IMG/VR virus record: IMGVR_UViG_3300005399_000003
Strand: one strand, 5' to 3'
Source of the DNA: a virus
Lineage: Duplodnaviria > Heunggongvirae > Uroviricota > Caudoviricetes
Length of the DNA: 64,000 nucleotides
Shown here: positions 4,325 to 41,703 of the stretch, piece after piece
Position numbering within the stretch: the first letter of the stretch is position 1
Layout of the letters: each line of letters starts with the position of its first letter
Translations under genes and position numbers: made by a program
Notes under the pieces: generated by a model
The model's database searches: none
Told to the model about the DNA's origin: nothing
The model's input: only the letters and a program-made list of their open reading frames with translations

Positions 4325-6730
4325 ATGAAGGATACAATCTCCCCCGCCGCAGAAGTGCGGGAATTTGCCCCCGGTATTGGTCGCGCTGTCGCTGATCGCA
4401 CTGTGGCCCGTAAGGTTATCAAACAGCACGATGGCGTGCAGTTTCACAACATCACCCTGCCGCGTGACGACAAGCAGTCATTGGACGCTCAAGTTGCCAA
4501 ACACGCCAAGAACGAAGGGCTGATCTACTCTGGCTATCACGTCAAGCACGGCAATGATCGCAACGTGGTGCTGACCCTCTATGTGACGGGCGAGGAACGT
4601 CGGGAGAACTGGGTTGAAGTGGCAGATCGGGTCGCACTGGGCAATGCATCCCTGAACCCCGCAGACTTTGATAGTGAGGTCGTGATCTTCGCAGATCACC
4701 TACGCCGCGCCACCACCCTCATGTCGGGCCGTCATCTACAGCACGGCGATGAGAACCAGAAGAACCGCCCCTTTGAGGTCTTTACGAACTGTTCGACCGC
4801 ACCTCTGACTTCCCTTTCCTTCTATCTGCTGCTCAACGGCTCGGGCGTTGGGCGAGACTACTCCGATGAAATGATGGTCGCTGACTGGGCCGACATGCCC
4901 ATCGTGGTTCCGGTGATCAGCGAAACCCACGCAGACGTCGCCTCTGGGCTCGCTGCGGGTTACTCGACTATCGCAGACGTTGAACACCTCTACGCTGATC
5001 GCAAGATCACCATCTTCAATGTCCCTGACAGCCGCGAAGGCTGGGCTGAGGGCGTCGCTAAGATGGAAGAGATGGCATATGAAAAGCGCCGCGATGAAGT
5101 GCTGGTGCTGGACTTCTCCGAAGTGCGCCCGAATGGCGCCCCGATCGGCGGCATGCAGAGCCGCCCAGCATCTGGCCCCGGCCCATTGATGTCCGCAATC
5201 GTCAAGATCGCAGCCCTGCGCGACGCAGGCATGCCTGCTTGGCGCTCCAATCTCTATGCTGACCACTACTGCGCCGCGGTTGTTCTGGTGGGCGGTGCGC
5301 GTCGTGCGGCTCGCATGTCGACAAAGTGGTGGATGGACCCCGGCGTTCTGGATTTCGTCAAGGTCAAGATGGGCGGGCGCTTCTTGTGGTCGTCAAACAA
5401 CTCCGTCACCGTCGATGCGCAGTTCTGGACATGCGTGAAAAACGCCACCACCGACAACGAGCATCCCGTCACAGAGCTGGACGAATGGGCGCTCAAGGTC
5501 TTCAACGCTGTCACCGAAGCCTCGTACAAAGACGGCACAGGCGAGCCCGGCTTCATCAATGTGGACATGTTCGACGCCAAAATCCCCAAGGGCGGTGTTG
5601 GTGAGATCAACTTCGACCACGTTCTCGATACGACCCGCTTGAACTTCACCTCTGGCTTTAAGGAGATGATGGTCGATGTGGTGGAGCGCGGTGCAAAGTC
5701 CAGCTTCCCGATGATCACCAACCCCTGCGGGGAAATTCAGCTGGTCAAATGGGGCGGCTACTGCGTGATTGCAGACGTTGTGCCTTATCACGCTGACAAT
5801 CTCGATGACGCCGAGCAGGCGTTCCGGGCCACAACCCGCGCTCTCATTCGTACCAACTTGATGAACCCGCTGTTTAAGGGCGAGGTCAAACGCACCAATC
5901 GCATCGGGGTTGGCATCACGGGTTTGCACGAGTTTGCCCTCAAGTTCTTCGGCTACGGTTGGCACGATCTTGTGGACGAGAAGAAGTCGCAGGACTTCTG
6001 GGATACAATTGCCCGCTTTGCGCGTGCCGTGAAGATCGAGGCGACGATCTATGCGGGCAAGCTAGGGGTTGCATCTCCACACACAGACACCACGATGAAG
6101 CCTGCGGGCACAACCTCCAAGCTCTTCGGGCTGACCGAGGGTGCGCATTTGCCTGCGATGCTGACCTACCTGCGGTGGGTGCAGTTCCGCTCTGACGATC
6201 CGTTGGTCGAAGAGTACAAGGCCAAGGGCTACCCGACCAAGACCCTGCGTAGCTATGATGGCACAACTGTCGTGGGCTTCCCAACTGCCCCGGCGATTGT
6301 CGAGCTGGCCCGCGAATTGGGTTTGGAAGATAAGCTGGTCACGGCCGCCGAAGCCACGCCCGAGGAGCAGTTTGAGTATCTGCGCTTGCTGGAGAAATAC
6401 TGGATCGCGGGTAACATGAAGGACGATACTGGCAATCAGATCTCCTACACGCTCAAGTATGACCCCGAGCAGGTCGACTTCGATGCTTACCGCGCCTCGA
6501 TGTTGAAGAACATGCCGACGGTGAAATGCGTCTCGGTGATGCCCCAGGTCGATACCACGGCCTATGAGTATCAGCCCGAGGAGCCTGTCACCAAAGAGGT
6601 CTTCGAGCGCATCGCGGCAGAGATTGCCAATGCCCAGACGGCACAGGTGATGGAAGAGAGTATCGACTACGAGCATCTTGCCTGCGATGCGGGCGGCTGC
6701 CCGATCTCCTTCGACAAAGACGGCATCTAA
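4325..6730 (+). CDS. nrdJ: ribonucleotide reductase, class II (adenosylcobalamin-dependent, NrdJ-like)
   Basis: NPCGEIQL active-site motif in an 801-aa single chain. No small subunit is encoded nearby. Confidence 0.8.
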   Translation: MKDTISPAAEVREFAPGIGRAVADRTVARKVIKQHDGVQFHNITLPRDDKQSLDAQVAKHAKNEGLIYSGYHVKHGNDRNVVLTLYVTGEERRENWVEVADRVALGNASLNPADFDSEVVIFADHLRRATTLMSGRHLQHGDENQKNRPFEVFTNCSTAPLTSLSFYLLLNGSGVGRDYSDEMMVADWADMPIVVPVISETHADVASGLAAGYSTIADVEHLYADRKITIFNVPDSREGWAEGVAKMEEMAYEKRRDEVLVLDFSEVRPNGAPIGGMQSRPASGPGPLMSAIVKIAALRDAGMPAWRSNLYADHYCAAVVLVGGARRAARMSTKWWMDPGVLDFVKVKMGGRFLWSSNNSVTVDAQFWTCVKNATTDNEHPVTELDEWALKVFNAVTEASYKDGTGEPGFINVDMFDAKIPKGGVGEINFDHVLDTTRLNFTSGFKEMMVDVVERGAKSSFPMITNPCGEIQLVKWGGYCVIADVVPYHADNLDDAEQAFRATTRALIRTNLMNPLFKGEVKRTNRIGVGITGLHEFALKFFGYGWHDLVDEKKSQDFWDTIARFARAVKIEATIYAGKLGVASPHTDTTMKPAGTTSKLFGLTEGAHLPAMLTYLRWVQFRSDDPLVEEYKAKGYPTKTLRSYDGTTVVGFPTAPAIVELARELGLEDKLVTAAEATPEEQFEYLRLLEKYWIAGNMKDDTGNQISYTLKYDPEQVDFDAYRASMLKNMPTVKCVSVMPQVDTTAYEYQPEEPVTKEVFERIAAEIANAQTAQVMEESIDYEHLACDAGGCPISFDKDGI

Positions 6731-12773: not shown

Positions 12774-13376
12774 ATGATGGCTGATGTGGGTCAGAAGTTC
12801 GGAAAGCTGACGGTGATTCAAAAGCTGCCGAAAGGGGTAAATCTTTGCCGCTGCGAGTGTGGCAGTGAAACGAAGGTTTCCAATACACGACTGCCGAAGT
12901 CGACGGGATGTCGGGAATGTAATCTTGAGCGCCTGCGTAGCGAAAAGTGGAGCGACGATCCGGCATACAAATGCTGGGCCAGTATGAAAACGCGCTGCCT
13001 GAATAGAAACCACAAGCATTACGACAGATACGGCGGGCGCGGAATTAAAGTCTGCGACCGATGGGTCGAGAGCTTCCAAAGCTTTCTTGAGGACATGGGT
13101 GAAAGACCCTCGCCCAATCACACCATTGAGCGGATCAACCACGACGGAGACTACGAACCGTCAAACTGCAAGTGGATGCTGCGACGCTATCAGAACGACA
13201 ACACCTCTCGAACGCGAGACGTTTCGGTGGATGGGATGTCCTTCAAGACGCTCAGCAAGGCGGCGACCCATTTCGGCATCCCCTACAAGACCGTCTACGC
13301 CCGGGTGGCGACGCTCGGTTGGGACATGAAAAAGGCACTGACGACGCCCGTGGCGGGCAGAAAGGAAGTAACATGA
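12774..13376 (+). CDS. HNH homing endonuclease
   Basis: Cys-rich N-terminus, YGGRGIKVC, INHDGDYEPSNCKWM HNH-like motif. Confidence 0.7.
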   Translation: MMADVGQKFGKLTVIQKLPKGVNLCRCECGSETKVSNTRLPKSTGCRECNLERLRSEKWSDDPAYKCWASMKTRCLNRNHKHYDRYGGRGIKVCDRWVESFQSFLEDMGERPSPNHTIERINHDGDYEPSNCKWMLRRYQNDNTSRTRDVSVDGMSFKTLSKAATHFGIPYKTVYARVATLGWDMKKALTTPVAGRKEVT

Positions 13377-13663
13377 AAAGCATCTCCAACAAACTCAACT
13401 GGCTGATGCCGGGCGTTCAGCATGTCGCGCGCATCAAGGATGATCGGGTGAACCCCAATCGTCTTGAAAGCATGTGGCTTGGGTTCTCAGCGGGGGTGGC
13501 TGAGCTGCCCGTTCTGCTGATGATGCACATCGTCATGTTTCTCTACGCTATTGCTATCGCGCTCTGTACCTTCATCGCGACGATCGGCATGTCATTCGCC
13601 TTTGTGGGTGCGAGCCTTGTCTTGGGCGTGAAGGGCAAGATGGAGCGTCGGGACCATGAGTGA
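13373..13663 (+). CDS. membrane protein
   Basis: AAAGGAAG RBS. ATGA overlap. Two to three TM helices. Confidence 0.55.
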   Translation: MKSISNKLNWLMPGVQHVARIKDDRVNPNRLESMWLGFSAGVAELPVLLMMHIVMFLYAIAIALCTFIATIGMSFAFVGASLVLGVKGKMERRDHE

Positions 13664-13916
13664 GAAGATTCACATCGACAGCCTCGAAGGGCAGCGGCAC
13701 GAGGCGTATCGCCGCTCTCGGGATCACAAGGTCAAAATCCCCTACCGCAATGAAGACGGCGAAGAGCGGGTCGTGCGCTACAGTCGCCCGCTGACCTCGG
13801 GAAACACGATGGAAGGGCTGGATGATGTCACAGGGCATCACATGCCCGGCTATTGGTACGACGCCCCGGCAGAGGGCGGCCCCGGCATTCGGTTCACTGA
13901 CGAGGAGACGACATGA
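13656..13916 (+). CDS. hypothetical protein
   Basis: ORF overlapping its neighbours by a few nt. Confidence 0.45.
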   Translation: MSEKIHIDSLEGQRHEAYRRSRDHKVKIPYRNEDGEERVVRYSRPLTSGNTMEGLDDVTGHHMPGYWYDAPAEGGPGIRFTDEETT

Positions 13917-14185
13917 TCATCTGCACCAGCAAAGAAAGCCGCGAGAGACTGCGCGCCGAGAAGCGCGACGAGGCTCTGATGGACAGGCGCAAGAAGATGA
14001 TCGTAAAGGCACAGTCGCGCAAGGTCTTCTTGTGGCTGCCGCGTCGTCTCTACAACGGCGACATTGTTTGGCTGCGCAAAGTATGGCGCCGGGGCCTGCT
14101 GACAGGGTGCGGCAAAATCAGCTTCTACTACGGCATTCGGTACGACGATCTGCCAGGGCGCGAAGAGCCTCTCCCCTCACCATAA
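13913..14185 (+). CDS. hypothetical protein
   Basis: ATGA overlap; the product is basic. Confidence 0.45.
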   Translation: MIICTSKESRERLRAEKRDEALMDRRKKMIVKAQSRKVFLWLPRRLYNGDIVWLRKVWRRGLLTGCGKISFYYGIRYDDLPGREEPLPSP

Positions 14186-14208
14186 GACGAGAAAGAACAG
14201 GAAAACAC

Positions 14209-14709
14209 ATGCTAAAGACACCACCAAAACGAGCAGGGCGCGACCCGATCTTGAACGTGCTGACAAGCCTCAGTCACGGCAAGACCTATGATGGGCTGGA
14301 TGAAGGCTACGCAAGCCTTTCGCACTGGAATCCTGAGTTTGAATACTCCTTCGACAAGTCGTTTGAGCCAATCGACTTCATGAAGCCTGAATACGCTGTC
14401 GAGGGCCGTACATGCGAATGGACGGGCGAGCAGATGTTCCTCAGTGACTACGGGGTGATCGACACCATCGAGCAGTTCGACGAGATGTTCGGCGAAGCGC
14501 TGCGGAATGACGAGCGCACTTTCTTTGTGACATTCGTGGAGATTGCCCGCAAAGATCAACCCGCAAGCGGCGGGTGGCGCTACCACAAGTGGGGTCCATA
14601 CTTCGGCACACAGAACCCGAAGCATGAGTACATCTACCACGATACGCATATCGACCGGGTGTTCACCTTCAGCATTCATCTGATCGAAGCAGAGCAGGTG
14701 ACGGCATGA
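14209..14709 (+). CDS. hypothetical protein
   Basis: ATG 14209 after GAAAGAACAGGAAAAC. Overlaps the RtcB start. Confidence 0.5.
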   Translation: MLKTPPKRAGRDPILNVLTSLSHGKTYDGLDEGYASLSHWNPEFEYSFDKSFEPIDFMKPEYAVEGRTCEWTGEQMFLSDYGVIDTIEQFDEMFGEALRNDERTFFVTFVEIARKDQPASGGWRYHKWGPYFGTQNPKHEYIYHDTHIDRVFTFSIHLIEAEQVTA

Positions 14710-16058
14710 GCGAGATTGAATCCCTCTACAGCGGCAACGACCTCATTCGCTGGGGTCTGAAGCCTGGGGCTTGGTTCAAGGACGCGATCGTCAAGGCGAA
14801 TGCGCTTTGGGATGCGGGCTACTCGGAAGACGAAATCAAGGTGCTCGTCTCGAAAGACGAGCCCACCTTCCTCGAAATGCGAAAGCCCGAGAATGGCTCG
14901 GCGTTCAGTGTCTTCCTTGAGCCTGAGAACGACATTGAGCAGGCTAATCGGGATCAGGTCGTAGAGGCCATGCGCGAAATCATGCGCGTGCCTGTCGTCA
15001 CGGGCGGCGCGGTGATGCCTGACGCTTGCCCTGCCGGCACGATCCCGGTGGGCGGCGTCGTCGAGTCGAGTGCCATTCACCCGAGCTATCACAGCGCCGA
15101 TGTGTGCTGCTCGATGGCGATGACGGTGATTAAGGAAGACGTCGATCAGATGGAGCTGCTGGACAAGATCCAGGAGCTGACCCACTTCGGCCCAACCAAG
15201 CGGGAGACGCGCCCTGTCGAGTTACCGGAAGGGTTCACTGACGGGTGGGGCGATAACATCTTCCTGACGGGTCTCGAAGACGTGGCGCGCAATCACTTCA
15301 CCACGCAGGGTGATGGCAATCACTTCTACTTCGTGGGGCGCTCGGAGGTGACAGGCGATGTGTGCATGGTCTCGCATCACGGCAGCCGCGGCTTCGGGGC
15401 GCAGGTCTACAAGCGCGGTAAGCAGGCTGCCGAAAAGCACACGCGCAACGTGGCGCCAAAAGTGCCTAAGCAACATGCCTGGATTTCGCCCGATGATCAC
15501 GGGCATCTGTATTGGGAAGCGCTGCGCGTTGTGCGTGAATGGACGAAGCTCAACCACTTCATGCTGCATGACGAAATCCTGCGGCAGATGAATGCGACAG
15601 CCGATTGTCAAACGTGGAACCCGCATAACTTCGTCTTTGAGCGGAACGGCATGTTCTATCATGCCAAGGGGGCGACGCCCTCCTTCTTTACTGGCTTCGA
15701 CGACGATGACGGCATGACCTTAATCCCCATGAACATGGCAGAGCCCATTCTGGTCACGTTCCATGAAGACAACCCGCATGCTCTCGGCTTCGCGCCACAT
15801 GGGGCAGGGCGGAACATGAGCCGCACAGCTTTCCTCAAAGAGCATGCGCCCGAGGCTCCTGCTGACATTGACGTGCGGTTCTGGTGCGGGATCGAGGACA
15901 AGAGTGAGCTGCCGCAAGCCTATAAGTCTGCGGCGCAGGTCACGAAAGCGATCAGCGAACACGAGCTAGCCCACATCGTTGACCGCATCATTCCTTATGG
16001 CTCGATCATGGCGGGCGATTGGGAGAGCGAAGCCCCGTGGCGCAAGAAGCGCAAGTAA
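14706..16058 (+). CDS. rtcB: RtcB-family 3'-phosphate/5'-hydroxyl RNA ligase
   Basis: MPDACPAG, GDGNHFYF, HHGSRGFG and PHGAGRNMSRT match RtcB metal- and GTP-binding motifs. Confidence 0.8.
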   Translation: MSEIESLYSGNDLIRWGLKPGAWFKDAIVKANALWDAGYSEDEIKVLVSKDEPTFLEMRKPENGSAFSVFLEPENDIEQANRDQVVEAMREIMRVPVVTGGAVMPDACPAGTIPVGGVVESSAIHPSYHSADVCCSMAMTVIKEDVDQMELLDKIQELTHFGPTKRETRPVELPEGFTDGWGDNIFLTGLEDVARNHFTTQGDGNHFYFVGRSEVTGDVCMVSHHGSRGFGAQVYKRGKQAAEKHTRNVAPKVPKQHAWISPDDHGHLYWEALRVVREWTKLNHFMLHDEILRQMNATADCQTWNPHNFVFERNGMFYHAKGATPSFFTGFDDDDGMTLIPMNMAEPILVTFHEDNPHALGFAPHGAGRNMSRTAFLKEHAPEAPADIDVRFWCGIEDKSELPQAYKSAAQVTKAISEHELAHIVDRIIPYGSIMAGDWESEAPWRKKRK

Positions 16059-16147
16059 CAGGCCCGATCATAAGATTGCCCGTCCAGATATGGGCGGGCA
16101 TCAAGTCATTACTGACAGAGCAATGACGCAAACGAAAGGGAAACCCC

Positions 16148-16555
16148 ATGCCGAAGATTACACAGATCAATCGCCCGATGGCTCAGCAGCTTGCAAAGCG
16201 GATCAAGGAAAAGCTGCAAGAGCTGGACGAAGAGTTCGGCTACGACATCAGCTTTGACATTGACCCTCACTGGCGGTTCAGCTCGTCGAGCCTATCGGTA
16301 GCCGTCAAGGCATCGCTCGACGTGCCGACAGAAGAGACCTCCGAGGGTCGCACCTTCGCACTGCTTGCGCCCCGCTATGACTTACAGCCTGACTTGCTCG
16401 GCAAGACATTCTGGATGGGTAACTATGAGTACCGCATCACAGGCCTCAAGCCATCGCGCCCAAAGTATCCCGTAAGCGCCGAGCGAGTGCGTGACGGACG
16501 CGGCTACAAGTTCACCGTCGATCAGATTAAGATGGGAATGCGCATCGGGGCCTAA
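16148..16555 (+). CDS. hypothetical protein
   Basis: GAAAGGGAAACCCCATG translation-initiation motif. Confidence 0.5.
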   Translation: MPKITQINRPMAQQLAKRIKEKLQELDEEFGYDISFDIDPHWRFSSSSLSVAVKASLDVPTEETSEGRTFALLAPRYDLQPDLLGKTFWMGNYEYRITGLKPSRPKYPVSAERVRDGRGYKFTVDQIKMGMRIGA

Positions 16556-16636
16556 GCCCCACAACAGTTGCGATAAAGGGCGGCGCATGTCGTGCCGCCC
16601 TTTGTGGTGACAGTAGAAATCAGGAGTTGATTGACC

Positions 16637-17020
16637 ATGCAAAAACTAGAAGTCGGACAAATCGGGGAAGTAGCCGCCCTCACAACGACCAAAGGGCAGG
16701 AGCCGTTTGTGTTCAAGGGGGAGCTGATGGCGTGGTCGTCTAAGCGCACTGACGGCCGCCTTGGGGATGCTTCGCCCATCGCCATTCTGCGCCTCTACAA
16801 GAACGTCTCCGGGCGCGTGAAGCCGTCCCGGCGGTTCATCATCGCTTTCGAGAAGATCGAGGCTGATGGTTCGCTGATTACCGCATCATATCGCAGCTAC
16901 ACGGGCCTGCAAAAGATGGCTGAGAAAAGCCCCGTGGATAAGATGCATCGCCGCATCTGCGAGCTTGTCGGCGTGCGTGAGTATATGAGCGATATGAAGC
17001 CCACAGAAGTAGGCGGGTAG
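16637..17020 (+). CDS. hypothetical protein
   Basis: AGGAG RBS 10 nt upstream of ATG 16637. Confidence 0.5.
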   Translation: MQKLEVGQIGEVAALTTTKGQEPFVFKGELMAWSSKRTDGRLGDASPIAILRLYKNVSGRVKPSRRFIIAFEKIEADGSLITASYRSYTGLQKMAEKSPVDKMHRRICELVGVREYMSDMKPTEVGG

Positions 17021-17134
17021 CGGGTAGCCCGTGGCGACACTTTAGGGCCGACCCGCCACAATGAGGGGTGCATAAAGACTACAGCGAGGGGCAAACGCCC
17101 CAGCGATTGAAACGAGAGAAAGAGAGACGAGAAC

Positions 17135-18004
17135 ATGGCACGCAAGCGTAACAAGATGACAAAGAGCGACGACAAAGTGGAAGTTGGCAGCGAAGTTCTG
17201 ACCAGCGATGCTGATCTGGCAGCGATCGAAGCCCTGCTCGATGGCGACGCAGAAGTGGTGCTCGACAGCCCCGAGCCTGACGCTGAACCCGTCGAAGCTG
17301 AGGCAGCGAAAGACGAGAGCGCCGGGGATGACGCAGCTCTGATGGACGAAGCCCTCGCGGCGATCGAAGCTGAGCCCGCCCCTGCGGTCGTGAGCGACGA
17401 AGATGTCGCCGATGACGTTGCCGAAGCCCTTGCGGGTGAAGAGGCGAAGAGCGAAGCCTACGCTGACCAGAAGAGCGACATCGACATCAAAGAGGATGCC
17501 GTCGAAGCCGCGCCCGAGACGAAGGCTGAGGCGAAGACAGAGACGAAGACAGAGACGAAGGCGCCCAAGAAGCCCGCATCGCCGAAGCTGGGCTTTGAAG
17601 AGACGATCCGTCTCATGCACGCCAATGACCCGATCACGCTGGACAGCGAAGAGGGTCCGCTGAATGACGATGGCATCGCTGCGCTGATCGCCGATGTCTA
17701 TCAGGTCAAAGTGCGCGAGAAGGTGACGAATCTGCTCAACGGCGTGCTGAAAGACGCAGGCATCAGCAAATACACGGTGATCGCCCTGGAAGTGCTCAAG
17801 AAGGCGTATCACGAAGACACGGTCGTGACAGCGGCTGACATCAAGAAGGCGTATGAGGCGCACGGGTACAAGTCGGGCACGGTCAACGCGCAGCAGGGGC
17901 AGATGATGGTTCTATTCTCAGCCCTCGGGATGGCAAAGCGGGTTGATCGCGGCACCCTCAAGCCGAACCCGAACAGTGTCCTGCTCGACGCGCTTTGCGC
18001 TTGA
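17135..18004 (+). CDS. protein with long acidic disordered N-terminus (D/E/A-rich) and folded C-terminal domain
   Basis: Composition: the first ~140 aa have net charge strongly negative, then TETKTETK repeats, then a lysine-rich alpha-helical domain. Confidence 0.55.
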   Translation: MARKRNKMTKSDDKVEVGSEVLTSDADLAAIEALLDGDAEVVLDSPEPDAEPVEAEAAKDESAGDDAALMDEALAAIEAEPAPAVVSDEDVADDVAEALAGEEAKSEAYADQKSDIDIKEDAVEAAPETKAEAKTETKTETKAPKKPASPKLGFEETIRLMHANDPITLDSEEGPLNDDGIAALIADVYQVKVREKVTNLLNGVLKDAGISKYTVIALEVLKKAYHEDTVVTAADIKKAYEAHGYKSGTVNAQQGQMMVLFSALGMAKRVDRGTLKPNPNSVLLDALCA

Positions 18005-18028: not shown

Positions 18029-18056
18029 GGGGTGCCCACCGGGCGCCCCATTTTCG
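18029..18056 (+). terminator. rho-independent terminator
   Basis: GGGGTGCCC-ACCG-GGCGCCCC followed by ATTTTCG. Confidence 0.55.
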
Positions 18057-31654: not shown

Positions 31655-31795
31655 GTCTTCCATGGCACGGCCATGGCAAAGCTACCATGGCGTTTGCCTA
31701 AACGCGGCCATGGCAGGTCCATGGAGATCAGGCCATGGTCTTCTCCTAAACGCGGCCATGGCGGGTCCATGGCGTTTCGGCCATGGCGCCCCGGG
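31655..31795 (+). promoter_or_regulatory. array of 9 CCATGG palindromes incl. ~40-bp tandem repeat
   Basis: Nine G/TCCATGGC sites within about 135 bp. CTAAACGCGGCCATGGC(A/G)GGTCCATGG is duplicated. Confidence 0.55.
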
Positions 31796-31856
31796 ACTGT
31801 TGCGCTGCCTAACCCTGCGCGGGACATTGGGGCATCAACAGAGAAAGGGATTACCC

Positions 31857-32189
31857 ATGAAGATCGAACTGGAAGTATGTGACTGCTCGGGCGAAGCGAT
31901 TGTTTGCAAGGTGACGCCCACAGACGCGCAGATCGAGAAGATCGAGAAGGCGATAAGCGAGAACCCCTCAAAGATGTTTGAATGGCAAGGCGAGCTGCCC
32001 AATGTCGCTGAGACGACTGTGGAGGGCGTTGACTGCATGTCATTCATGGACGAGGGCATTCTGATCATGTCGATCGCTGGACCCTCGTATATGGACTGTC
32101 TGACGATCTGGGAGGACAAAGAGATGCAAGAGCGCGCAATCGCTGAGACATGGATGCTCTTTGTCCCGCATTTGAAGATCTTCCTCTAA
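31857..32189 (+). CDS. hypothetical protein
   Basis: GAAAGGGATTACCCATG leader. The portion of the tracked ORF upstream of this ATG runs through the CCATGG repeats and is probably non-coding. Confidence 0.5.
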   Translation: MKIELEVCDCSGEAIVCKVTPTDAQIEKIEKAISENPSKMFEWQGELPNVAETTVEGVDCMSFMDEGILIMSIAGPSYMDCLTIWEDKEMQERAIAETWMLFVPHLKIFL

Positions 32190-32335
32190 AGGGAAAGGCG
32201 AGCCCCGCGTCCATATTAGGGAAAGGCTAGCCCCGTGGCGGGCTCTAGGAAAGGCTGCGGGAAAGGCTAGCCCCGTGGCGAGGCTTAGGAAAGGCTCGGA
32301 GAAAGGCGAGCGCTTTGCCTAGGAACGGCGCGGAA
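32190..32335 (+). repeat. direct repeats GGGAAAGGCTAGCCCCGTGGCG(G/A)GC(T)CTAGG x2 plus GGAAAGGC variants
   Basis: Two near-identical units of about 30 bp, each containing an internal hairpin. Confidence 0.55.
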
Positions 32336-32423
32336 AAGGAGAGGAAAGGCAGCAAAAAATGCCGCGGCAAGGCGCGGCAAAGCCCCTGCGGGGCTTGGAG
32401 GAGGCTAGGCGCCCCCTTGATCG

Positions 32424-32450
32424 ACTGTCGCCCGAATGTCACAGTGACAT
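32424..32450. promoter_or_regulatory. perfect 27-bp palindrome GCCCGAATGTCAC-A-GTGACATTCGGGC
   Basis: 13-bp arms with no mismatches; operator-like. Confidence 0.5.
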
Positions 32451-32593
32451 TCGGGCAACAGGGCGTCAATATCGGGTAGTAACGCTAGTTTGCGATTCTA
32501 GCCCCAAAAGCGTTTTCTGCGCTGCATCTGCGAAGATTACTGCGATTATGCTGCAAAGCAAAATAGCGATGAAACGGGTGATAGCTTGCATGA

Positions 32594-32803
32594 TTACGCC
32601 CCCAATTCGCGATACACCCATGCCCGTTGAACGGGCGGGATTGCGTCGAGATATGCAAGCGCGTCAGCGTCATCTTCATGCAAGCTCAGCATTGTCTCAA
32701 TCCCTGACAGGGGCAGGGGCAAGACGTGATCAAACACGCGCACATCATAGCTCTCGGGGCGTTTGCTGCGCGGGGCGCGGGGCAGGGTAACTACGTTCGA
32801 CAT
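32594..32803 (-). CDS. hypothetical small protein
   Basis: On the minus strand it is preceded by GAAAGGGATTTACCCAATG, the same leader used by the + strand cassette genes. Confidence 0.45.
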   Translation of the reverse strand: MSNVVTLPRAPRSKRPESYDVRVFDHVLPLPLSGIETMLSLHEDDADALAYLDAIPPVQRAWVYRELGA

Positions 32804-32854
32804 TGGGTAAATCCCTTTCAAGTGTTGCGGGCTGTTTCGCCCGTATCTCTTTCT

Positions 32855-33000
32855 AAGTCATCTTTGACTTGATTCGCAATATCCCTTTCCCATTAAATCG
32901 CCCCCTTTTCCCCTTTCCCCATATAAAGGGATTAAATCGCCCCCTTTTCATAAAAGCGCATTTTAGGGGTTGCGAATCAAGTCACCCCTGACTTATACAT
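32855..33000. promoter_or_regulatory. composite regulatory region: two AGTCA-N4-TGACT elements embedded in a 15-bp inverted repeat flanking 2x direct repeat ATTAAATCGCCCCCTTTTC
   Basis: The TTGACTTGATTCGCAA...TTGCGAATCAAGTCA arms enclose the direct repeats. Confidence 0.5.
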
Positions 33001-33058
33001 ATTTCACGGGCAACGAAGCGCCCCGCAAGAAAGCGCTTCACATGAAAGGGAAAGACCC

Positions 33059-33742
33059 ATGACAAACGTTTCTATCAAAGCAATGCGCGAAAATCTGACA
33101 GCTAACTTTGCAGCGCGTGAAGAGTTTGAAGCGAAAAAGGGCAAAGCTGCTAGCATCATGCCCCAGCTTGATCGTCATTTCGCGTATGACAATAAAGCGC
33201 AAGATTCCAAATGGGGTAACGATGTATTCAAAGCCCTGCGCGATGCGGGTGTCTCTAACTTTGACTTCATCACGCACAAGCTGCGCGAGTCTGATATGTT
33301 CAATATCAAGGGGCTTGCGAAAGTAGGGGCGCACATTGAAAGCATCGCGCGGGGCAAGCTCACCCAATTTGACAAGACGAATCAGAAGTATTGCGGGGCG
33401 ATTGTGCATGAGCTGATTCAGAATCGTGACAAGTTCGAGCGGGGCGAAATGCAAATCAAAACAGGGCAATTTGTACCCATGTTCGCCCGCGCAGCACGCA
33501 ACGACTCGCTTGCGACATATGATTTCGCAACATCGCTAATCAGCGTTCAACCCAGCACTGCTAGCACGCAAGCAAGCTCTAGCATGCGCGCCCTAGATGC
33601 AATGGGGGTAGTGAACGCATACGAAACAGGGACAGGGAAAGACAAGACATTGCATGTAAACTATGTGAAATGGGATCACCCCCTTGTCGCTTTGTTCGCT
33701 GAGCTTTACGGGCTAGACGTTCCCAAAACTGAGCAAGCTTAA
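33059..33742 (+). CDS. hypothetical protein (lower-GC, likely horizontally acquired moron)
   Basis: Local GC is about 48%, against roughly 60% for the window. The gene carries the same GAAAGGGAAAGACCCATG leader. Confidence 0.55.
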   Translation: MTNVSIKAMRENLTANFAAREEFEAKKGKAASIMPQLDRHFAYDNKAQDSKWGNDVFKALRDAGVSNFDFITHKLRESDMFNIKGLAKVGAHIESIARGKLTQFDKTNQKYCGAIVHELIQNRDKFERGEMQIKTGQFVPMFARAARNDSLATYDFATSLISVQPSTASTQASSSMRALDAMGVVNAYETGTGKDKTLHVNYVKWDHPLVALFAELYGLDVPKTEQA

Positions 33743-33744
33743 AC

Positions 33745-33832
33745 TGCCCCGCTAGCGCCCCTCTGAGGGGCGTTAGCATCCCCGCAAGGGGGTCGGGTAG
33801 GGAATGACATTAGCGCCCCTCAGAGGGGCTTA
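33745..33832. terminator. convergent-transcription terminator hairpins
   Basis: GCTAGCGCCCCTC-TGA-GAGGGGCGTTAGC and TTAGCGCCCCTCAGAGGGGCT, between + strand and - strand gene blocks. Confidence 0.45.
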
Positions 33833-34048
33833 TATTGGGCGAATCACACGCGGGCGTTGCAAGAAGCCCTAGATTCGCTGTCAAGCCCTATGGACCGTCA
33901 CCTTCCTCTTTGCGGCGGGTTTTTCGGCCGCTCCTTATACAGCCGCGGACGGGGTGCAGACCGCTCCTTATACAGCCGTCCAAGGGTCCGATTGTCCGCT
34001 GGTCAAGGGTCCGTGGGTCGATTGGTCGCTGGTCGCCAGCGTCTTCGA

Positions 34049-34831: not shown

Positions 34832-35059
34832 TCAGGGCAGAACGACGCTTGGGTCCAGCAGCAGGTCGATTTGCAGGTCGATGATGGTGATCTGACGCTC
34901 GATCTCCGGGACAGCGCGCGCCAGCCCCGGAAGGTTTGCGAAATCGTGGGTGTCTTTGAGGATCTCCACGGTGCGCTTGAGGCAGCAAACCTCGTCTTTG
35001 AGCTTGACCGCGCGCCAGATGCGGCTTGGGTTCGTGATGATGAACAACAGGGCTTCCAT
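34832..35059 (-). CDS. hypothetical protein
   Basis: ATG overlaps the stop of the upstream HAD gene (TGATG). Confidence 0.4.
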   Translation of the reverse strand: MEALLFIITNPSRIWRAVKLKDEVCCLKRTVEILKDTHDFANLPGLARAVPEIERQITIIDLQIDLLLDPSVVLP

Positions 35060-35598
35060 CAGTAGTTGCCCTCCGCGACCTGACAGCAGAGCAGCCCCTT
35101 CGCGCGCCACATGGCGGTGTCGTCTTTGCGATCTTCAAAGGCGAGCTTGGGATCGAAACCGTCCATGCGGGCTTGCTCCAGCAGTTCTCCTTTGACGATG
35201 TGACTTGGGCGACGATCACCATCCTTGCGCATGTAGATGATCGGGCCGACGACTTTGCCTTGGTAGCTCGTCTGCTTCATCCAGTAATGCCATGCGTAGA
35301 CGCGCACCGGGCAGTATTGGGTCATCAGCCAATTGTAGGTGACTTCACGCTGCGCCTCGGGTCGCCCGGTGATGAAGATCACGCGATGGCCCTCGTAGAG
35401 CATGGCTTCAAGCAGGCGCCAGGTTTGCTCGATCGGCGCATCCTTTGCCACAGCGTCATCGCTCAAGAAGGCATCCCAGTCCTTTCGGAAGGGTTGTTCA
35501 TAGGCGATGTTCGGATCGGGGGTGATGTGATGAAGACGGTGGCTGGCGTTTGCCAGCGTCCCGTCGATGTCGAAGACGATGTCCATGATGCGGCTCAC
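35059..35598 (-). CDS. HAD-family polynucleotide 3'-phosphatase, homolog of T4 Pnk C-terminal domain (no kinase domain)
   Basis: VFDIDGTL (motif I), VIFITGR (motif II) and a C-terminal AFEDRKDDTAMWRAKGLLCCQVAEGNY. The last closely parallels T4 Pnk [27 protein letters not shown]. Start is GTG 35598 or ATG 35586. Confidence 0.7.
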   Translation of the reverse strand: MSRIMDIVFDIDGTLANASHRLHHITPDPNIAYEQPFRKDWDAFLSDDAVAKDAPIEQTWRLLEAMLYEGHRVIFITGRPEAQREVTYNWLMTQYCPVRVYAWHYWMKQTSYQGKVVGPIIYMRKDGDRRPSHIVKGELLEQARMDGFDPKLAFEDRKDDTAMWRAKGLLCCQVAEGNY

Positions 35599-37512: not shown

Positions 37513-38124
37513 TCAGGCGATGATATAGGGCCGCGTGATCCGCCGTTCGGGGAAGAGGGCGTTGTAGCGCATCACGAAGTTGGCGTAAGCGTAAGGGGGC
37601 AGCTGGGGGTTGATGATCACTTGGTCATCAGGGATGCACAGATGGGGCTCTGGCGGCGCGTAGTTCTCTTTGAGGTCGCGCACTTCGGTGTTGAGCATGA
37701 TGGCGTCGAGTTCTTTGATTTCGGCGCAATCCCACATGTCAGGGTCGATTTCGTGATCTTCAAAGATCATCCGGGTGACGTTGGTCTCATGCCCCTTGAT
37801 GGAGGGACACTTGCGTTTCAGGGGCGTGACAATCTCGCCGATCCAAGCTTCGCCTGCATCATGCAGTAGGGCTGCGCGGGCAAGGTCGATATTGCTACCC
37901 TCATGCAAATCCTCGGCCCAATACGACATGATGGTCGAATGCTGTGCGACGGAGTAATACCCGTTGGTATAGCCGTTAAAACGGCTCTGGTTCGCCAATG
38001 AGATGGCGACAGTTGACATGTCGATCATGTCTCGCTGAGGGTTTGTGAAGTCAATCTTGGCTCCACCCAGTGTCCAAAGTTCCGTGTCTTTGGTTTCCAT
38101 CATTGTCGTGACTGGCAATGTCAT
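37513..38124 (-). CDS. HD-domain 5'-deoxynucleotidase (YfbR-like)
   Basis: YSVAQHS, LLHDAGEAWIGEIVTP matches YfbR VSEHS, YHDASEVLTGDLPTP. Confidence 0.7.
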   Translation of the reverse strand: MTLPVTTMMETKDTELWTLGGAKIDFTNPQRDMIDMSTVAISLANQSRFNGYTNGYYSVAQHSTIMSYWAEDLHEGSNIDLARAALLHDAGEAWIGEIVTPLKRKCPSIKGHETNVTRMIFEDHEIDPDMWDCAEIKELDAIMLNTEVRDLKENYAPPEPHLCIPDDQVIINPQLPPYAYANFVMRYNALFPERRITRPYIIA

Positions 38125-38738
38125 GCTCCCGTTCTCAATCGCGTATCTCTAGCGCCGTTAATCCAATCTGTGAGGGGTGATTGAAGAATCGCTCTCCGAA
38201 GGCCTTCCAAAGAAGTCCCTGGATTATGAATGGTGAAGTCCACCAGGCTACGATCGTAGCTGTCGAACTCCCACTCACTAGCTTCCTTTAGCCCGCTCAA
38301 TACCTCTACGACGACACCACCAGCTCTTTTGTAAGCCGCGCCCTGCTGTCTTCGTACACTTCCAAAGCTGTAACCGTTGGGTGACTTATTGTCACCCCAA
38401 AACTGTCCCGAGGGTGTCACATTTTGTCGCAAGACGGAACGAATAGCGATTTCAGGAATTGCTTCATCCCCCAAAAGCGCTTCCACAAGATTGCCATATT
38501 CCCCAAGCAGCTGTCGAACTTGCCATTTCTTGCCGAAAACCGTGACGAAACGTAGCTTTCCTTCTTGAGAATATACGTCTTCAGGGGTCAGGCCCGCAAG
38601 GTCCATGACGTGACGCCGGATGATGTCGCCATCGTCCACTGGCTCGATTCCGAATAGTTCGGTAAGTAAGCGCTGAGTTGTTGTTTTCCCTGAGCCTGGA
38701 GCGCCGCAGAGTGCGATCAAAGTCGATGTTCTCGACAT
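38121..38738 (-). CDS. deoxynucleoside monophosphate kinase (T4 gp1-like P-loop kinase)
   Basis: GAPGSGKTT P-loop. KWQVRQLLGEYGNLVEALLGDEAIPEIAI parallels T4 gp1 QWSVRRLMQALGTDLIVNNFDRMYW. Confidence 0.55.
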   Translation of the reverse strand: MSRTSTLIALCGAPGSGKTTTQRLLTELFGIEPVDDGDIIRRHVMDLAGLTPEDVYSQEGKLRFVTVFGKKWQVRQLLGEYGNLVEALLGDEAIPEIAIRSVLRQNVTPSGQFWGDNKSPNGYSFGSVRRQQGAAYKRAGGVVVEVLSGLKEASEWEFDSYDRSLVDFTIHNPGTSLEGLRRAILQSPLTDWINGARDTRLRTGA

Positions 38739-40373: not shown

Positions 40374-41030
40374 ATGAACCTCATCCATACAGATCCCCGC
40401 ACATTAAGCCCAAATCCCTGGAACCCGAACCATGTCTCCCCGGAAGGTATGGAGCGTCTCACCGAAAGTCTTCGGCGCCACGGCTGGGTAAAGCCCGCGC
40501 TTGTGCGTGAGACAGACACGGGCCTTGAAATCCTCGGCGGTCAACATCGCATCGAAGCCTCGATCGTCCTGGGCAATGAGACAGTCCCGGTTCTCAATCT
40601 CGGTCGCTTGAGTGACGAGCGCGCCAAGGAGATCGGTCTGATCGACAACGCCCGTTACGGTAGCGATGACGCGGATGAACTGGCGGCCATCATCAAAGAC
40701 CTTGGCGGCAGCGAGATCATCTCGGAGTTTCTACCCTTCTCTGATGCCGAACTGGCCTCCCTCGCGACCGACATTGATGTGGATGACATCGACGACATGA
40801 TCGACGGCACCCACGACAGCACCGGTGAGCCGGAAGAGAAGCCCGAGCGGCCGCCCAAGACCCACACCATCATGCGCTTCAAGATCTCCATTCAAGACGA
40901 AGACCTGGTGCGGGAGCTGATCGAGGAGATCAAACGAGATCAGGAGTTCGTCGAGGAAGACGATCTCACCAATGCCGGGGATGCCCTGGTCTATCTTGCT
41001 CAACAAATGAAGGAAGCCGAACATGGCTAA
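40374..41030 (+). CDS. ParB/Srx-like nuclease-domain protein
   Basis: LEILGGQHR ParB N-domain motif and an acidic C-terminus. Confidence 0.7.
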   Translation: MNLIHTDPRTLSPNPWNPNHVSPEGMERLTESLRRHGWVKPALVRETDTGLEILGGQHRIEASIVLGNETVPVLNLGRLSDERAKEIGLIDNARYGSDDADELAAIIKDLGGSEIISEFLPFSDAELASLATDIDVDDIDDMIDGTHDSTGEPEEKPERPPKTHTIMRFKISIQDEDLVRELIEEIKRDQEFVEEDDLTNAGDALVYLAQQMKEAEHG

Positions 41031-41703
41031 AGAGATCGACATCAACGACCTCTCCATTGAGGCAGTCGACATCGACTACCCCAAACCAGCGGAGAACAAC
41101 AACAAGGTTCACACGCCCGCATCTGTCGCGCGTCAGGCTAAGTCCCTCGCGGCCCTCGGGCAGATCACCCCGATCATCCTGGCTGAAGACGGCGAGATCA
41201 TCGCCGGACACGGTCGGGTCATGGCTGCCAAAGAGCTTGGCTGGAAGAAGATCAAGGCCATCACGCTGCCTGTTGACGCCGAGACGGCGCGCAAGATGCG
41301 CATTGCTGACAACCTCGCATCGAACCAAAACTACGACATCGACGCACTGACCAACGAGCTGAAGGACTTGAACCTTCGCGACGAGCTGGAAAACTTCATC
41401 GGCGACGATCGGATGATCGACAATCTGGAAACCGCGCTCGACACGCTGGCGGAGATGGATCGCGACAGCTTCGTCAAAGACCTCGATGAAGCCGTGGATG
41501 TCTACGCCTCGGAATCCGACGGCTTGATGGATGAAATCGACCAGAAGGATGTGATGCTCAAGACTGTCTTTGAGTTCAATGGCCTCAAACCCAAGGAGGC
41601 GCGGCGGGTCAATCTGTTCATGGCGCTGATCAAGGGCAAGAGCGGCGCGGAGGCAAAAGAAGCCTTCCTTGAGCATGTGGAGAAGACCATTGCCGAAGGA
41701 TGA
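41023..41703 (+). CDS. ParB/Srx-like nuclease-domain protein (second copy)
   Basis: IIAGHGRVMAAKELGW motif. Confidence 0.7.
   Translation: MAKEIDINDLSIEAVDIDYPKPAENNNKVHTPASVARQAKSLAALGQITPIILAEDGEIIAGHGRVMAAKELGWKKIKAITLPVDAETARKMRIADNLASNQNYDIDALTNELKDLNLRDELENFIGDDRMIDNLETALDTLAEMDRDSFVKDLDEAVDVYASESDGLMDEIDQKDVMLKTVFEFNGLKPKEARRVNLFMALIKGKSGAEAKEAFLEHVEKTIAEG

Follow-up and report, generated by a model that had tools for sequence, protein, structure and literature searches.

A tailed-phage RtcB-type RNA ligase with a modified guanine pocket and a separately encoded Pnkp-type phosphatase

Bacteriophage T4 repairs tRNA that has been cleaved by the host anticodon nuclease PrrC by means of the enzymes Pnkp and Rnl1, and this role is experimentally established. 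The T4 system heals the broken ends before it seals them in an ATP-dependent ligation of 5'-phosphate and 3'-OH termini, whereas ligases of the RtcB family seal 3'-phosphate and 5'-OH ends directly. RtcB accepts 3'-phosphate as well as 2',3'-cyclic-phosphate ends and is biochemically self-sufficient (PMC7824862, PMC3458531). In bacteria, the paralogue RtcB2, which has PrfH as its partner, is dedicated to translation-apparatus RNA cut by toxins (PMC9304027). A function of phage-encoded RtcB in countering host tRNA cleavage was speculated on for mycobacteriophages in 2011 (PMC3203893), and the same proposal was made for jumbo phages in 2021 (PMC7824862). Hence, the counter-defence idea for phage RtcB is not new but has been published speculation since 2011, and our literature search found no experimental test of any phage RtcB against host RNA cleavage or defence.

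Here we analyse an rtcB gene located in a 64,000-nucleotide stretch of viral DNA (hereafter, the window). The window belongs to a tailed phage and encodes terminase, portal, major head protein, ribonucleotide reductase, SbcC, and helicase. A nucleotide search of positions 13000–18000 against INPHARED gave no match, which means that no deposited genome is closely related to this phage. The original prediction had identified the ORF as RtcB from three motifs (GDGNHF, HHGSRGFG, and PHGAGR). Its position proved exact, all three motifs are found at the residues given in Table 1, which chance could not plausibly produce, and the identification is borne out by Pfam and PHROG matches and by the RtcB fold of the protein.

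Table 1. Features of the rtcB locus and of the phosphatase region in the window.
Feature	Coordinates	Strand	Remarks
Upstream ORF, 165 aa	14212..14709	+	Stop codon overlaps the rtcB start (ATGA)
rtcB, 450 aa	14706..16058	+	RtcB-family 3'-phosphate/5'-OH nucleic acid ligase; ATG start, stop codon 16056-16058
N-terminal three-helix module, residues 5-58	14718..14879	+	Motif G-x-x-L-I-x-W-G-x-K-P-G-x-W-F
MPDAC (residues 104-108) and SADVCCS (residues 130-136)	15015..15113	+	hhalign with E. coli RtcB, HMM alignment with P. horikoshii RtcB, invariance
GDGNHF, residues 202-207	15309..15326	+	Asn205/His206 correspond to E. coli Asn167/His168
HHGSRGFG, residues 224-231	15375..15398	+	His224, metal ligand, corresponds to E. 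coli His185
PHNF	15621..15632	+	His307, metal ligand, corresponds to E. coli His281
PHGAGR, residues 364-369	15795..15812	+	His365 corresponds to E. coli His337 and P. horikoshii His404
C-terminus MAGDWESEAPWRKKRK, clade-specific	16008..16055	+	In place of the canonical ...VKG end
Stand-alone Pnkp-type HAD 3'-phosphatase, 179 aa	35059..35598	-	PF25109, T4 Pnkp match
HD-domain dNMP phosphatase	37513-38124	-	phrog_318, E 1.3e-44
dNMP kinase	38121-38738	-	phrog_139, E 8.9e-17

The protein matches the Pfam RtcB family PF01139 (E 1.8e-29; 103.7 bits, cut-off 27), as do all 29 aligned relatives, and over residues 7–449 it matches phrog_1075, "tRNA splicing ligase" (E 4.5e-90). More than 6000 homologues are present in the databases. 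With the NCBIfam RtcB equivalog model it scores 69.6 bits, far under the cut-off of 407, and its identity to canonical RtcBs is 16–25%. E. coli RtcB is recovered by hhalign with a probability of 99.1% (E 1.2e-18), and an AlphaFold2 model (pLDDT 91.2) has 16 significant matches in the PDB, all of them RtcB or RTCB (best E 2e-21, TM 0.66). The enzymes of E. coli, P. horikoshii (PDB 4dwq), and human (PDB 7p3b) share the fold with TM scores of 0.59–0.66 and E-values of 2e-21 to 5e-19, and significant matches in a viral structure library are almost all RtcB-type ligases. The two-metal site is complete (Asp132, Cys135, His206, His224, and His307), and Asn205 and the histidine nucleophile His365 in its HGAGR motif are both present, all as in the canonical enzymes; residue roles, including that of the nucleotidyl-accepting histidine, are taken from PMC8668186. 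Nine residues (D132, C135, N205, H206, H224, H307, H365, R369, and R373) do not vary among 121 homologues and align in hhalign to E. coli D75, C78, N167, H168, H185, H281, H337, R341, and R345, the first two of which are metal ligands in both proteins. The phage gene thus encodes a member of the RtcB family with its fold and intact catalytic residues, and we regard it as a real, apparently functional RtcB-type RNA ligase.

Differences to the canonical enzymes concern the nucleobase pocket and the termini. In human RTCB the guanine is contacted by the side chains of E230, S409, and K504 (PMC8668186), with E171, S320, and K407 as the E. coli counterparts. The phage protein lacks this guanine-recognition set, and F209, I348, and M435 align where the canonical Glu, Ser, and Lys stand. 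The first equivalence is secure because the position is contiguous with GNHF; here the Glu of canonical GNHF-x-E is lost, and 116 of the 121 clade members have Tyr or Phe. The Ser and Lys equivalences depend on low-identity alignments, but the replacements at all three positions are themselves conserved within the clade. Moreover, the phage enzyme has MPD-A-C where canonical RtcB has MPD-x-H, and Cys108, His125, His129, and Cys134 are further invariant residues of the clade. The Lys that contacts guanine lies in the canonical ...VKG end, which is replaced in the clade by a conserved C-terminal extension. At the other terminus, the protein carries a module of approximately 55 aa that canonical RtcB lacks; its weak resemblance to the C-terminal tail of class II CCA-adding enzymes points weakly towards tRNA. 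The novelty of these clade-specific traits, the N-terminal module and the replaced guanine-contacting residues, is modest. They might together define an undescribed RtcB subfamily of alphaproteobacteria and phages, in which the core would be fused to a tRNA-elbow-binding module derived from CCA-adding enzymes and the nucleobase pocket would be rebuilt by Glu to Tyr/Phe, Ser to Ile, and C-terminal Lys to Met exchanges, together with an additional Cys/His cluster and a newly acquired tail. We consider this combined reading rather doubtful; if true, the enzyme would be a dedicated tRNA-repair ligase using a cofactor that differs from the GTP of all characterised RtcBs.

The phage RtcB falls in a large clade (phrog_1075) that alphaproteobacterial genomes have in common with their phages. 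Annotated homologues are found in 126 phage records, and a scan of IMG/VR, in which a single-protein query found nothing and an alignment query succeeded, yielded 122 confirmed matches, from which 80 loci were kept. The clade's phages have Bradyrhizobium, Rhizobium, Mesorhizobium, Caulobacter, and other hosts, and members also occur in Cellulophaga and Tenacibaculum phages, in bacterial chromosomes, and in one prophage-like region. The strong conservation of RtcB in phages argues for selection in phages. The RtcBs of Bradyrhizobium phage BDU-MI-1 ("protein RtcB", ARQ95432.1; 454 aa) and Rhizobium phage RHEph10 (gp146; 485 aa) align over their full length with 49–52% identity and share the N-terminal module and the C-terminal tail. 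Both genes lie in early or auxiliary regions of alphaproteobacterial phages with genomes of 115–121 kb.

In the window, rtcB is part of a long co-oriented plus-strand block of replication and nucleotide-metabolism genes, which suggests the early or middle expression typical of lytic growth; no promoter-like site was found ahead of the gene. Because the stop codon of the upstream 165-aa ORF overlaps the rtcB start, the two are probably co-translated. The C-terminal part of this ORF matches the uncharacterised families phrog_12048 and phrog_18298, searches against Pfam and NCBIfam returned zero matches, and tblastn did not detect it beside RtcB in any of 80 related loci. In BDU-MI-1, the ORF directly upstream of rtcB carries the annotation "GTP pyrophosphokinase"; considered as a possible relative of the 165-aa ORF, it proved to be an unrelated HD_4 hydrolase. 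Unlike in the Rtc operon (rtcBA, rtcR) and the RtcB–archease pair, no rtcA, rtcR, or archease gene accompanies the phage gene or was found among the window ORFs scanned. Neither tblastn of the window proteins nor de novo clustering of neighbouring ORFs revealed a recurrent partner in the 80 loci, the biggest neighbour family being present in 10 of them. The lack of RtcA, archease, and a recurrent neighbour is consistent with a self-sufficient enzyme. ARAGORN and Rfam searches identified no tRNA genes or Rfam families in the window. Among related loci, a tRNA gene lies within 10 kb of RtcB in 15 of 60 and within approximately 0.5 kb in five; tRNA genes adjoin rtcB in L015, L054, L047, L013, L065, and phage Dina. 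This proximity is not clearly in excess of the expectation for large phages and is not strong evidence.

The original prediction further held that the phage has RtcB instead of an Rnl-type ligase and only the phosphatase half of Pnk. Within the window, both observations stand: no PHROG or Pfam match to an Rnl1/Rnl2-type ATP-dependent RNA ligase and no polynucleotide 5'-kinase domain were found among the larger ORFs that were scanned, whereas T4 possesses a ligase and a kinase, and both P-loop kinases encoded there match families of thymidylate or dNMP kinases. The stand-alone phosphatase belongs to the same HAD fold family as the phosphatase domain of T4 Pnkp (HAD_PNKP, PF25109; E 2.7e-23), to which it aligns at T4 Pnkp residues 162–176 and 244–301 (5uj0, E 8e-9; 1ltq, E 9e-8), with a conserved C-terminal segment and the DxDxT motif as FDIDGTL at residues 9–15 of the phage protein. 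Since the protein begins at this motif, it lacks the kinase domain carried by the T4 enzyme.

A hybrid route, in which this phosphatase would process broken 3' ends before RtcB seals them, had also been suggested, and that one phage carries both genes speaks for it. However, the phosphatase of T4 Pnkp turns 3'-phosphate and cyclic-phosphate ends into 3'-OH (PMC3592404), and RtcB needs 3'-phosphate or cyclic phosphate (PMC7824862); a Pnkp-type phosphatase would therefore remove the very ends that RtcB seals. A distance of 19 kb separates the two genes, which are on opposite strands, and the minus-strand block that contains the phosphatase also holds the genes for the HD-domain dNMP phosphatase and dNMP kinase. 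Only one of the 80 related viral loci has a phosphatase within 10 kb of RtcB. In the close relative L003, whose RtcB is 76% identical, a HAD_PNKP gene precedes rtcB by approximately 8 kb in the same orientation, which would favour a link, but the DNA ligase gene between the two fits a role in processing DNA ends. In addition, stand-alone HAD_PNKP homologues occur in 1858 phage records compared to 126 for RtcB, mostly in genera outside the RtcB top ten, and the top-ten host-genus lists of the two do not overlap. RtcB and the phosphatase thus are not linked, a partnership between them is very unlikely, and the hybrid route, having next to no probability, is unsupported. A role of the phosphatase in DNA or nucleotide metabolism, in line with the DNA-repair alternative of the original prediction, is the better fit.

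Overall, the best explanation, and in our view the probable one, is a competent stand-alone RtcB that reseals host-cut RNA, with the phosphatase being separate. The ligase activity, RNA substrate, and counter-defence role of the phage enzyme are proposed here by analogy. As in characterised RtcBs, an NTP would nucleotidylate His365 while Asp132, Cys135, His206, His224, and His307 hold two Mn2+ ions, and the nucleotide would then move to the RNA 3'-phosphate. Where needed, RtcB itself would open a 2',3'-cyclic phosphate to obtain this 3'-phosphate. Attack by the 5'-OH end would restore the phosphodiester bond, and no end-healing partner should be required. The logic would be the same as in T4, a phage enzyme mending broken RNA whose ends are 2',3'-cyclic phosphate and 5'-OH. 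During infection, the enzyme most probably would reseal RNAs of the translation apparatus cut by metal-independent host RNases, with tRNA as the leading candidate substrate. The Pnkp-type phosphatase may separately dephosphorylate DNA 3' ends or nucleotides.

With the same RNA-repair chemistry, the substrate could also be rRNA or mRNA instead of tRNA, for example 16S or 23S rRNA that toxins of the colicin E3 or MazF type have cleaved, or phage transcripts that HEPN or toxin RNases have attacked. Bacterial RtcB2 repairs 16S rRNA cut by colicin E3 (PMC9304027, PMC9223846), MazF-cleaved rRNA has been linked to RtcB (PMC8668186), and the absence of tRNA genes from the window agrees with such a substrate. 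We regard this as unlikely, though of appreciable probability: unlike RtcB2, the phage enzyme has no PrfH-like partner or conserved neighbour, its match to the NCBIfam family TIGR03073 ("release_rtcB") reaches just 33.7 bits where the cut-off is 271.8, and the N-terminal module hints, if weakly, at tRNA. It is highly improbable that RtcB processes the phage's own RNAs, for instance by circularising an RNA or by ligating the exons of phage tRNAs that are split or contain introns. In archaea and animals, RtcB serves as the ligase of tRNA splicing (PMC8668186), and directly downstream of rtcB in L013 there are irregular tRNA predictions with "anticodons" of 2 or 4 nt, but the window itself is devoid of tRNAs and Rfam families, the ORF scans turned up no splicing endonuclease, and the majority of related loci have no nearby tRNA.

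Other readings retain a small probability. The gene might be one of lysogenic conversion in a temperate, SSU5-like phage that may be a phage-plasmid, where RtcB would guard the carrier from tRNase or rRNase toxins of competitors (colicins, CDI) instead of safeguarding lytic growth. The portal is 45–48% identical to portals of SSU5-like elements, the window contains two ParB-like genes, L003 carries Rep3 and ParA genes, and the chromosomal and prophage-like homologues mentioned above would be in line with such a host benefit. The placement of rtcB in a block of the type expected for early or middle lytic expression, the lack of its own promoter-like site, and the presence of the clade in Cellulophaga and Tenacibaculum phages make this reading improbable. 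Similarly improbable is an altered activity, such as end capping of DNA or RNA, joining of DNA 3'-phosphates, or use of another NTP rather than GTP-dependent RNA ligation. Replacement of the guanine-binding residues makes a different NTP conceivable; the conservation of each replacement, the extra invariant Cys and His residues, and the conserved C-terminal extension also favour a change in activity, and RtcB can act on DNA 5'-OH strands in vitro (PMC8051266). Yet the enzyme keeps every metal ligand, the nucleophile, and the arginines of HGAGR, and two of the three pocket equivalences depend on low-identity alignments. Furthermore, canonical RtcB with Archease already takes ATP, dGTP, or ITP (PMC10630183), so that a changed base pocket need not alter the reaction.

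RtcB is a common auxiliary gene of large phages, and its annotation here is correct but routine. The proposed pathway combining RtcB with the phosphatase can be discarded. Any member of this large clade would make a reasonable test case for phage RtcB. The N-terminal module and the changed nucleobase pocket of the clade could, moreover, show how RtcBs choose their substrate and cofactor.

The original prediction of an RtcB-family ligase is correct: the open reading frame (ORF) lies exactly at the predicted position, on the plus strand, and all of the proposed motifs were found in its product (GDGNHF at residues 202–207, HHGSRGFG at 224–231, and PHGAGR at 364–369). The protein matches the Pfam RtcB model (E 1.8e-29; score 103.7 bits, cut-off 27) and, over its whole length, phrog_1075, "tRNA splicing ligase" (E 4.5e-90). 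A PDB search with the single sequence gave a weak match (E 1e-6), and a profile built from 29 relatives retrieved P. horikoshii RtcB with E 7e-21; hhalign against E. coli K-12 RtcB yielded a probability of 99.1% (E 1.2e-18, 318 columns). An AlphaFold2 model made from an alignment (pLDDT 91.2, pTM 0.87) significantly matched 16 PDB chains, all of them RtcB/RTCB (best E 2e-21, TM 0.66), and nearly all significant matches in a viral structure library were annotated as "3'-phosphate/5'-hydroxy nucleic acid ligase."

According to hhalign, D132, C135, H206, H224, and H307 correspond to the metal-site residues D75, C78, H168, H185, and H281 of E. coli RtcB, N205 to N167, H365 to H337, and R369/R373 to R341/R345. 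This set includes the ligands of both metals, the Asn that contacts phosphate, and the His that accepts the nucleotidyl group, roles described for human and Pyrococcus RtcB (PMC8668186). The aligned catalytic residues are invariant in 121 of 121 homologues with at least 49% identity and, judged by this conservation, the catalytic centre looks functional.

Two features, the N-terminal module and the changed guanine contacts, set this RtcB clade apart, and no prior description of either was found. Residues 5–58 (14718–14879) form a three-helix module (pLDDT 85.7 for a model of the isolated domain) with the nearly invariant motif G-x-x-L-I-x-W-G-x-K-P-G-x-W-F. Canonical RtcB, including the E. coli enzyme, lacks this module, as do three other phage RtcBs. 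In class II CCA-adding enzymes, the C-terminal tail (PF13735; 1miv residues 350–376) shows a weak similarity to it. For short predicted proteins of 33–100 aa (P0121–P0131), the match to this clade is confined to the N-terminal module; they may be truncated or split rtcB genes, or the module in free-standing form. In human RTCB, guanine is contacted by the side chains of Glu230, Ser409, and Lys504 (PMC8668186), equivalent to E. coli E171, S320, and K407; these align here with F209, a secure replacement because it is contiguous with GNHF, and with I348 and M435, equivalences that depend on low-identity alignments. In the clade, conserved hydrophobic residues replace the canonical Glu, Ser, and Lys (at position 209, 116 of 121 members have Tyr or Phe), and where canonical RtcB ends in VKG, the C-terminus reads IMAG and continues into a conserved tail, DWExDAPWRKK. 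With these contacts replaced, the cofactor (NTP) specificity might differ from that of canonical RtcB, which together with Archease already accepts other NTPs (PMC10630183). Moreover, the canonical MPD-x-H is MPD-A-C in the clade, and Cys108, His125, His129, and Cys134, invariant or nearly so and absent from canonical RtcB, are sequence neighbours of the catalytic residues Asp132 and Cys135 and might provide a further metal site.

Coordinates of rtcB, its clade-specific positions, and other features of the window
Feature	Position	Strand	Remarks
HNH endonuclease with I-TevI-like DNA-binding region	12774–13376	+	phrog_374, E 3e-53
165-aa ORF, function unknown	14212–14709	+	stop codon overlaps rtcB start (ATGA); phrog_12048, phrog_18298
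rtcB	14706–16058	+	ATG start, 450 aa, RtcB-family ligase
Extra Cys/His	C108 15027–15029; H125, H129 15078–15092; C134 15105–15107	+	clade conservation
Guanine-pocket positions	F209 15330–15335; I348 15747–15749; M435 and C-terminal tail 16008–16055	+	alignment
Tandem repeats, 48-nt and 40-nt	31660–31773, 32191–32311		
GGGAAAGGC-type iterations	up to 32362		
Exact direct repeats	19-nt 32892/32931; 18-nt 33928/33961		
Palindromic 19-mer, two copies	33753, 33811		
Pnkp-type HAD phosphatase	35059–35598	-	179 aa; Pfam HAD_PNKP E 2.7e-23
HD dNMP phosphatase	37513–38124	-	same block as Pnkp-type phosphatase
dNMP kinase	38121–38738	-	same block as Pnkp-type phosphatase
ParB-like genes, two adjacent	40374–41703	+	

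Family matches of its ORFs identify the window as part of a tailed phage genome, and a nucleotide-level search of INPHARED gave no match. The portal protein is 45–48% identical to portals of SSU5-like elements and of 118–122-kb Rhizobium phages, which also carry RtcB homologues. The rtcB gene belongs to a long run of plus-strand genes, and a strong terminator-like hairpin (18029–18049) lies two genes past it. Upstream of rtcB, the window encodes SbcC, ribonucleotide reductase, a thymidylate synthase, a dUTPase, and DnaQ-like exonuclease and HNH endonuclease proteins; downstream, it encodes a helicase, two ParB-like proteins, terminase, portal, and major head protein. The HNH gene, probably a homing endonuclease, is inserted between the exonuclease gene and the rtcB region. 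The only matches of the 165-aa ORF are to PHROG families without an assigned function, and a search of 80 related loci did not detect it next to RtcB. The window contains neither tRNA genes nor Rfam matches. As predicted, RtcB occurs here without an Rnl-type ligase: none was found among the scanned ORFs of this partial genome (the remainder perhaps comprising another 50 kb), nor were a polynucleotide-kinase domain, RtcA, or archease. Elsewhere, plus- and minus-strand gene blocks meet in a gene-poor, repeat-rich stretch (31660–34030) that could be an origin or regulatory region. Two long minus-strand ORFs of 372 and 315 aa (60516–63086) have an unusual first-position GC of 0.70–0.75; neither matches Pfam and the former also lacks a PHROG match, and they could represent genuine genes with an atypical composition or no genes at all.

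The other enzyme proposed for RNA repair indeed represents only the phosphatase half of Pnk. It matches the T4 Pnkp phosphatase domain including DxDxT (5uj0, E 8e-9; 1ltq, E 9e-8), and its ORF begins directly at this motif and therefore has no kinase domain. The suggested hybrid route, in which it would process broken 3' ends before sealing by RtcB, found no support. RtcB directly joins 3'-phosphate or 2',3'-cyclic-phosphate ends (PMC7824862; PMC3458531), and the T4 phosphatase converts such ends to 3'-OH (PMC3592404) and would therefore remove the RtcB substrate. A distance of 19 kb separates the two oppositely oriented genes, and that of the phosphatase shares a minus-strand block with the genes of an HD dNMP phosphatase and a dNMP kinase. 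Stand-alone homologues of the phosphatase occur in 1858 phage records, mainly from phages of Klebsiella, Escherichia, Streptomyces, and Vibrio, genera missing from the RtcB top-ten list, and only one of 80 viral loci has the phosphatase within 10 kb of RtcB. L003 (RtcB 76% identical), the one close relative in which the two genes are near each other, has an ATP-dependent DNA ligase gene between them, which fits DNA-end processing. A partnership with RtcB is thus not supported, and DNA repair, the fallback of the original prediction, or nucleotide metabolism is the better reading.

Homologues of this RtcB were found by tblastn in 126 phage records, most of which already carry an RtcB or tRNA splicing ligase annotation; the best are in Bradyrhizobium phage BDU-MI-1 (52%) and Rhizobium phage RHEph10 and relatives (47–49%). 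In the protein database, homologues make up more than 6000 clusters (E <1e-5), including "RtcB family protein" of Bradyrhizobium, Methylobacterium, Mesorhizobium, Phaeobacter, and others. One bacterial copy is accompanied by RecT and integrase in a region resembling a prophage, and two others have ordinary-looking chromosomal contexts. Among the best 80 of 122 tblastn-confirmed IMG/VR matches, inspected with 10-kb flanks, no constant neighbour was found, the commonest family occurring in 10 of the 80 loci, and none of the window's immediate rtcB neighbours recurs. In BDU-MI-1, the gene overlapping the rtcB start (5436–5990 of locus L001) is annotated "GTP pyrophosphokinase"; we reject this synthetase assignment, as it encodes a short HD_4-domain protein resembling small alarmone hydrolases. 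It differs from the 165-aa ORF upstream of rtcB in the window.

Most likely, as family membership suggests, RtcB would act as a self-sufficient ligase that reseals RNA cut by metal-independent RNases during infection. The same explanation was offered earlier for mycobacteriophage (2011; PMC3203893) and jumbo-phage RtcB (2021; PMC7824862); the literature searched contained no experiment that tests a phage RtcB. A counter-defence role, likewise an old idea, is plausible. That rRNA or mRNA is the substrate appears unlikely. The replaced guanine contacts speak for an altered RtcB chemistry and the invariant catalytic residues against it; we consider it improbable.

With its paired ParB-like genes, a portal similar to those of SSU5-like elements, and Rep3 and ParA genes in its closest long relative (L003, 9855–11880), the element could be a temperate phage-plasmid. 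A benefit of RtcB to the cell carrying such an element has a similarly low probability. Processing of phage RNAs by RtcB is hardly to be expected. Of 60 loci, 15 have a tRNA gene no more than 10 kb from RtcB, and in five the distance is about 0.5 kb or less, an association that is suggestive and not clearly above chance for large phages. Four loci (L015, L054, L047, L065) have normal tRNA genes about 0.5 kb or less from rtcB, and directly downstream of rtcB in another (L013; 11745–12010, 16016–16088) there are irregular tRNA-like genes, predicted by ARAGORN, whose "anticodons" have 2 or 4 nt. Beside the preferred reading of a ligase that would reseal RNA during infection, the added domain and rebuilt nucleobase pocket of this clade constitute a minor lead.
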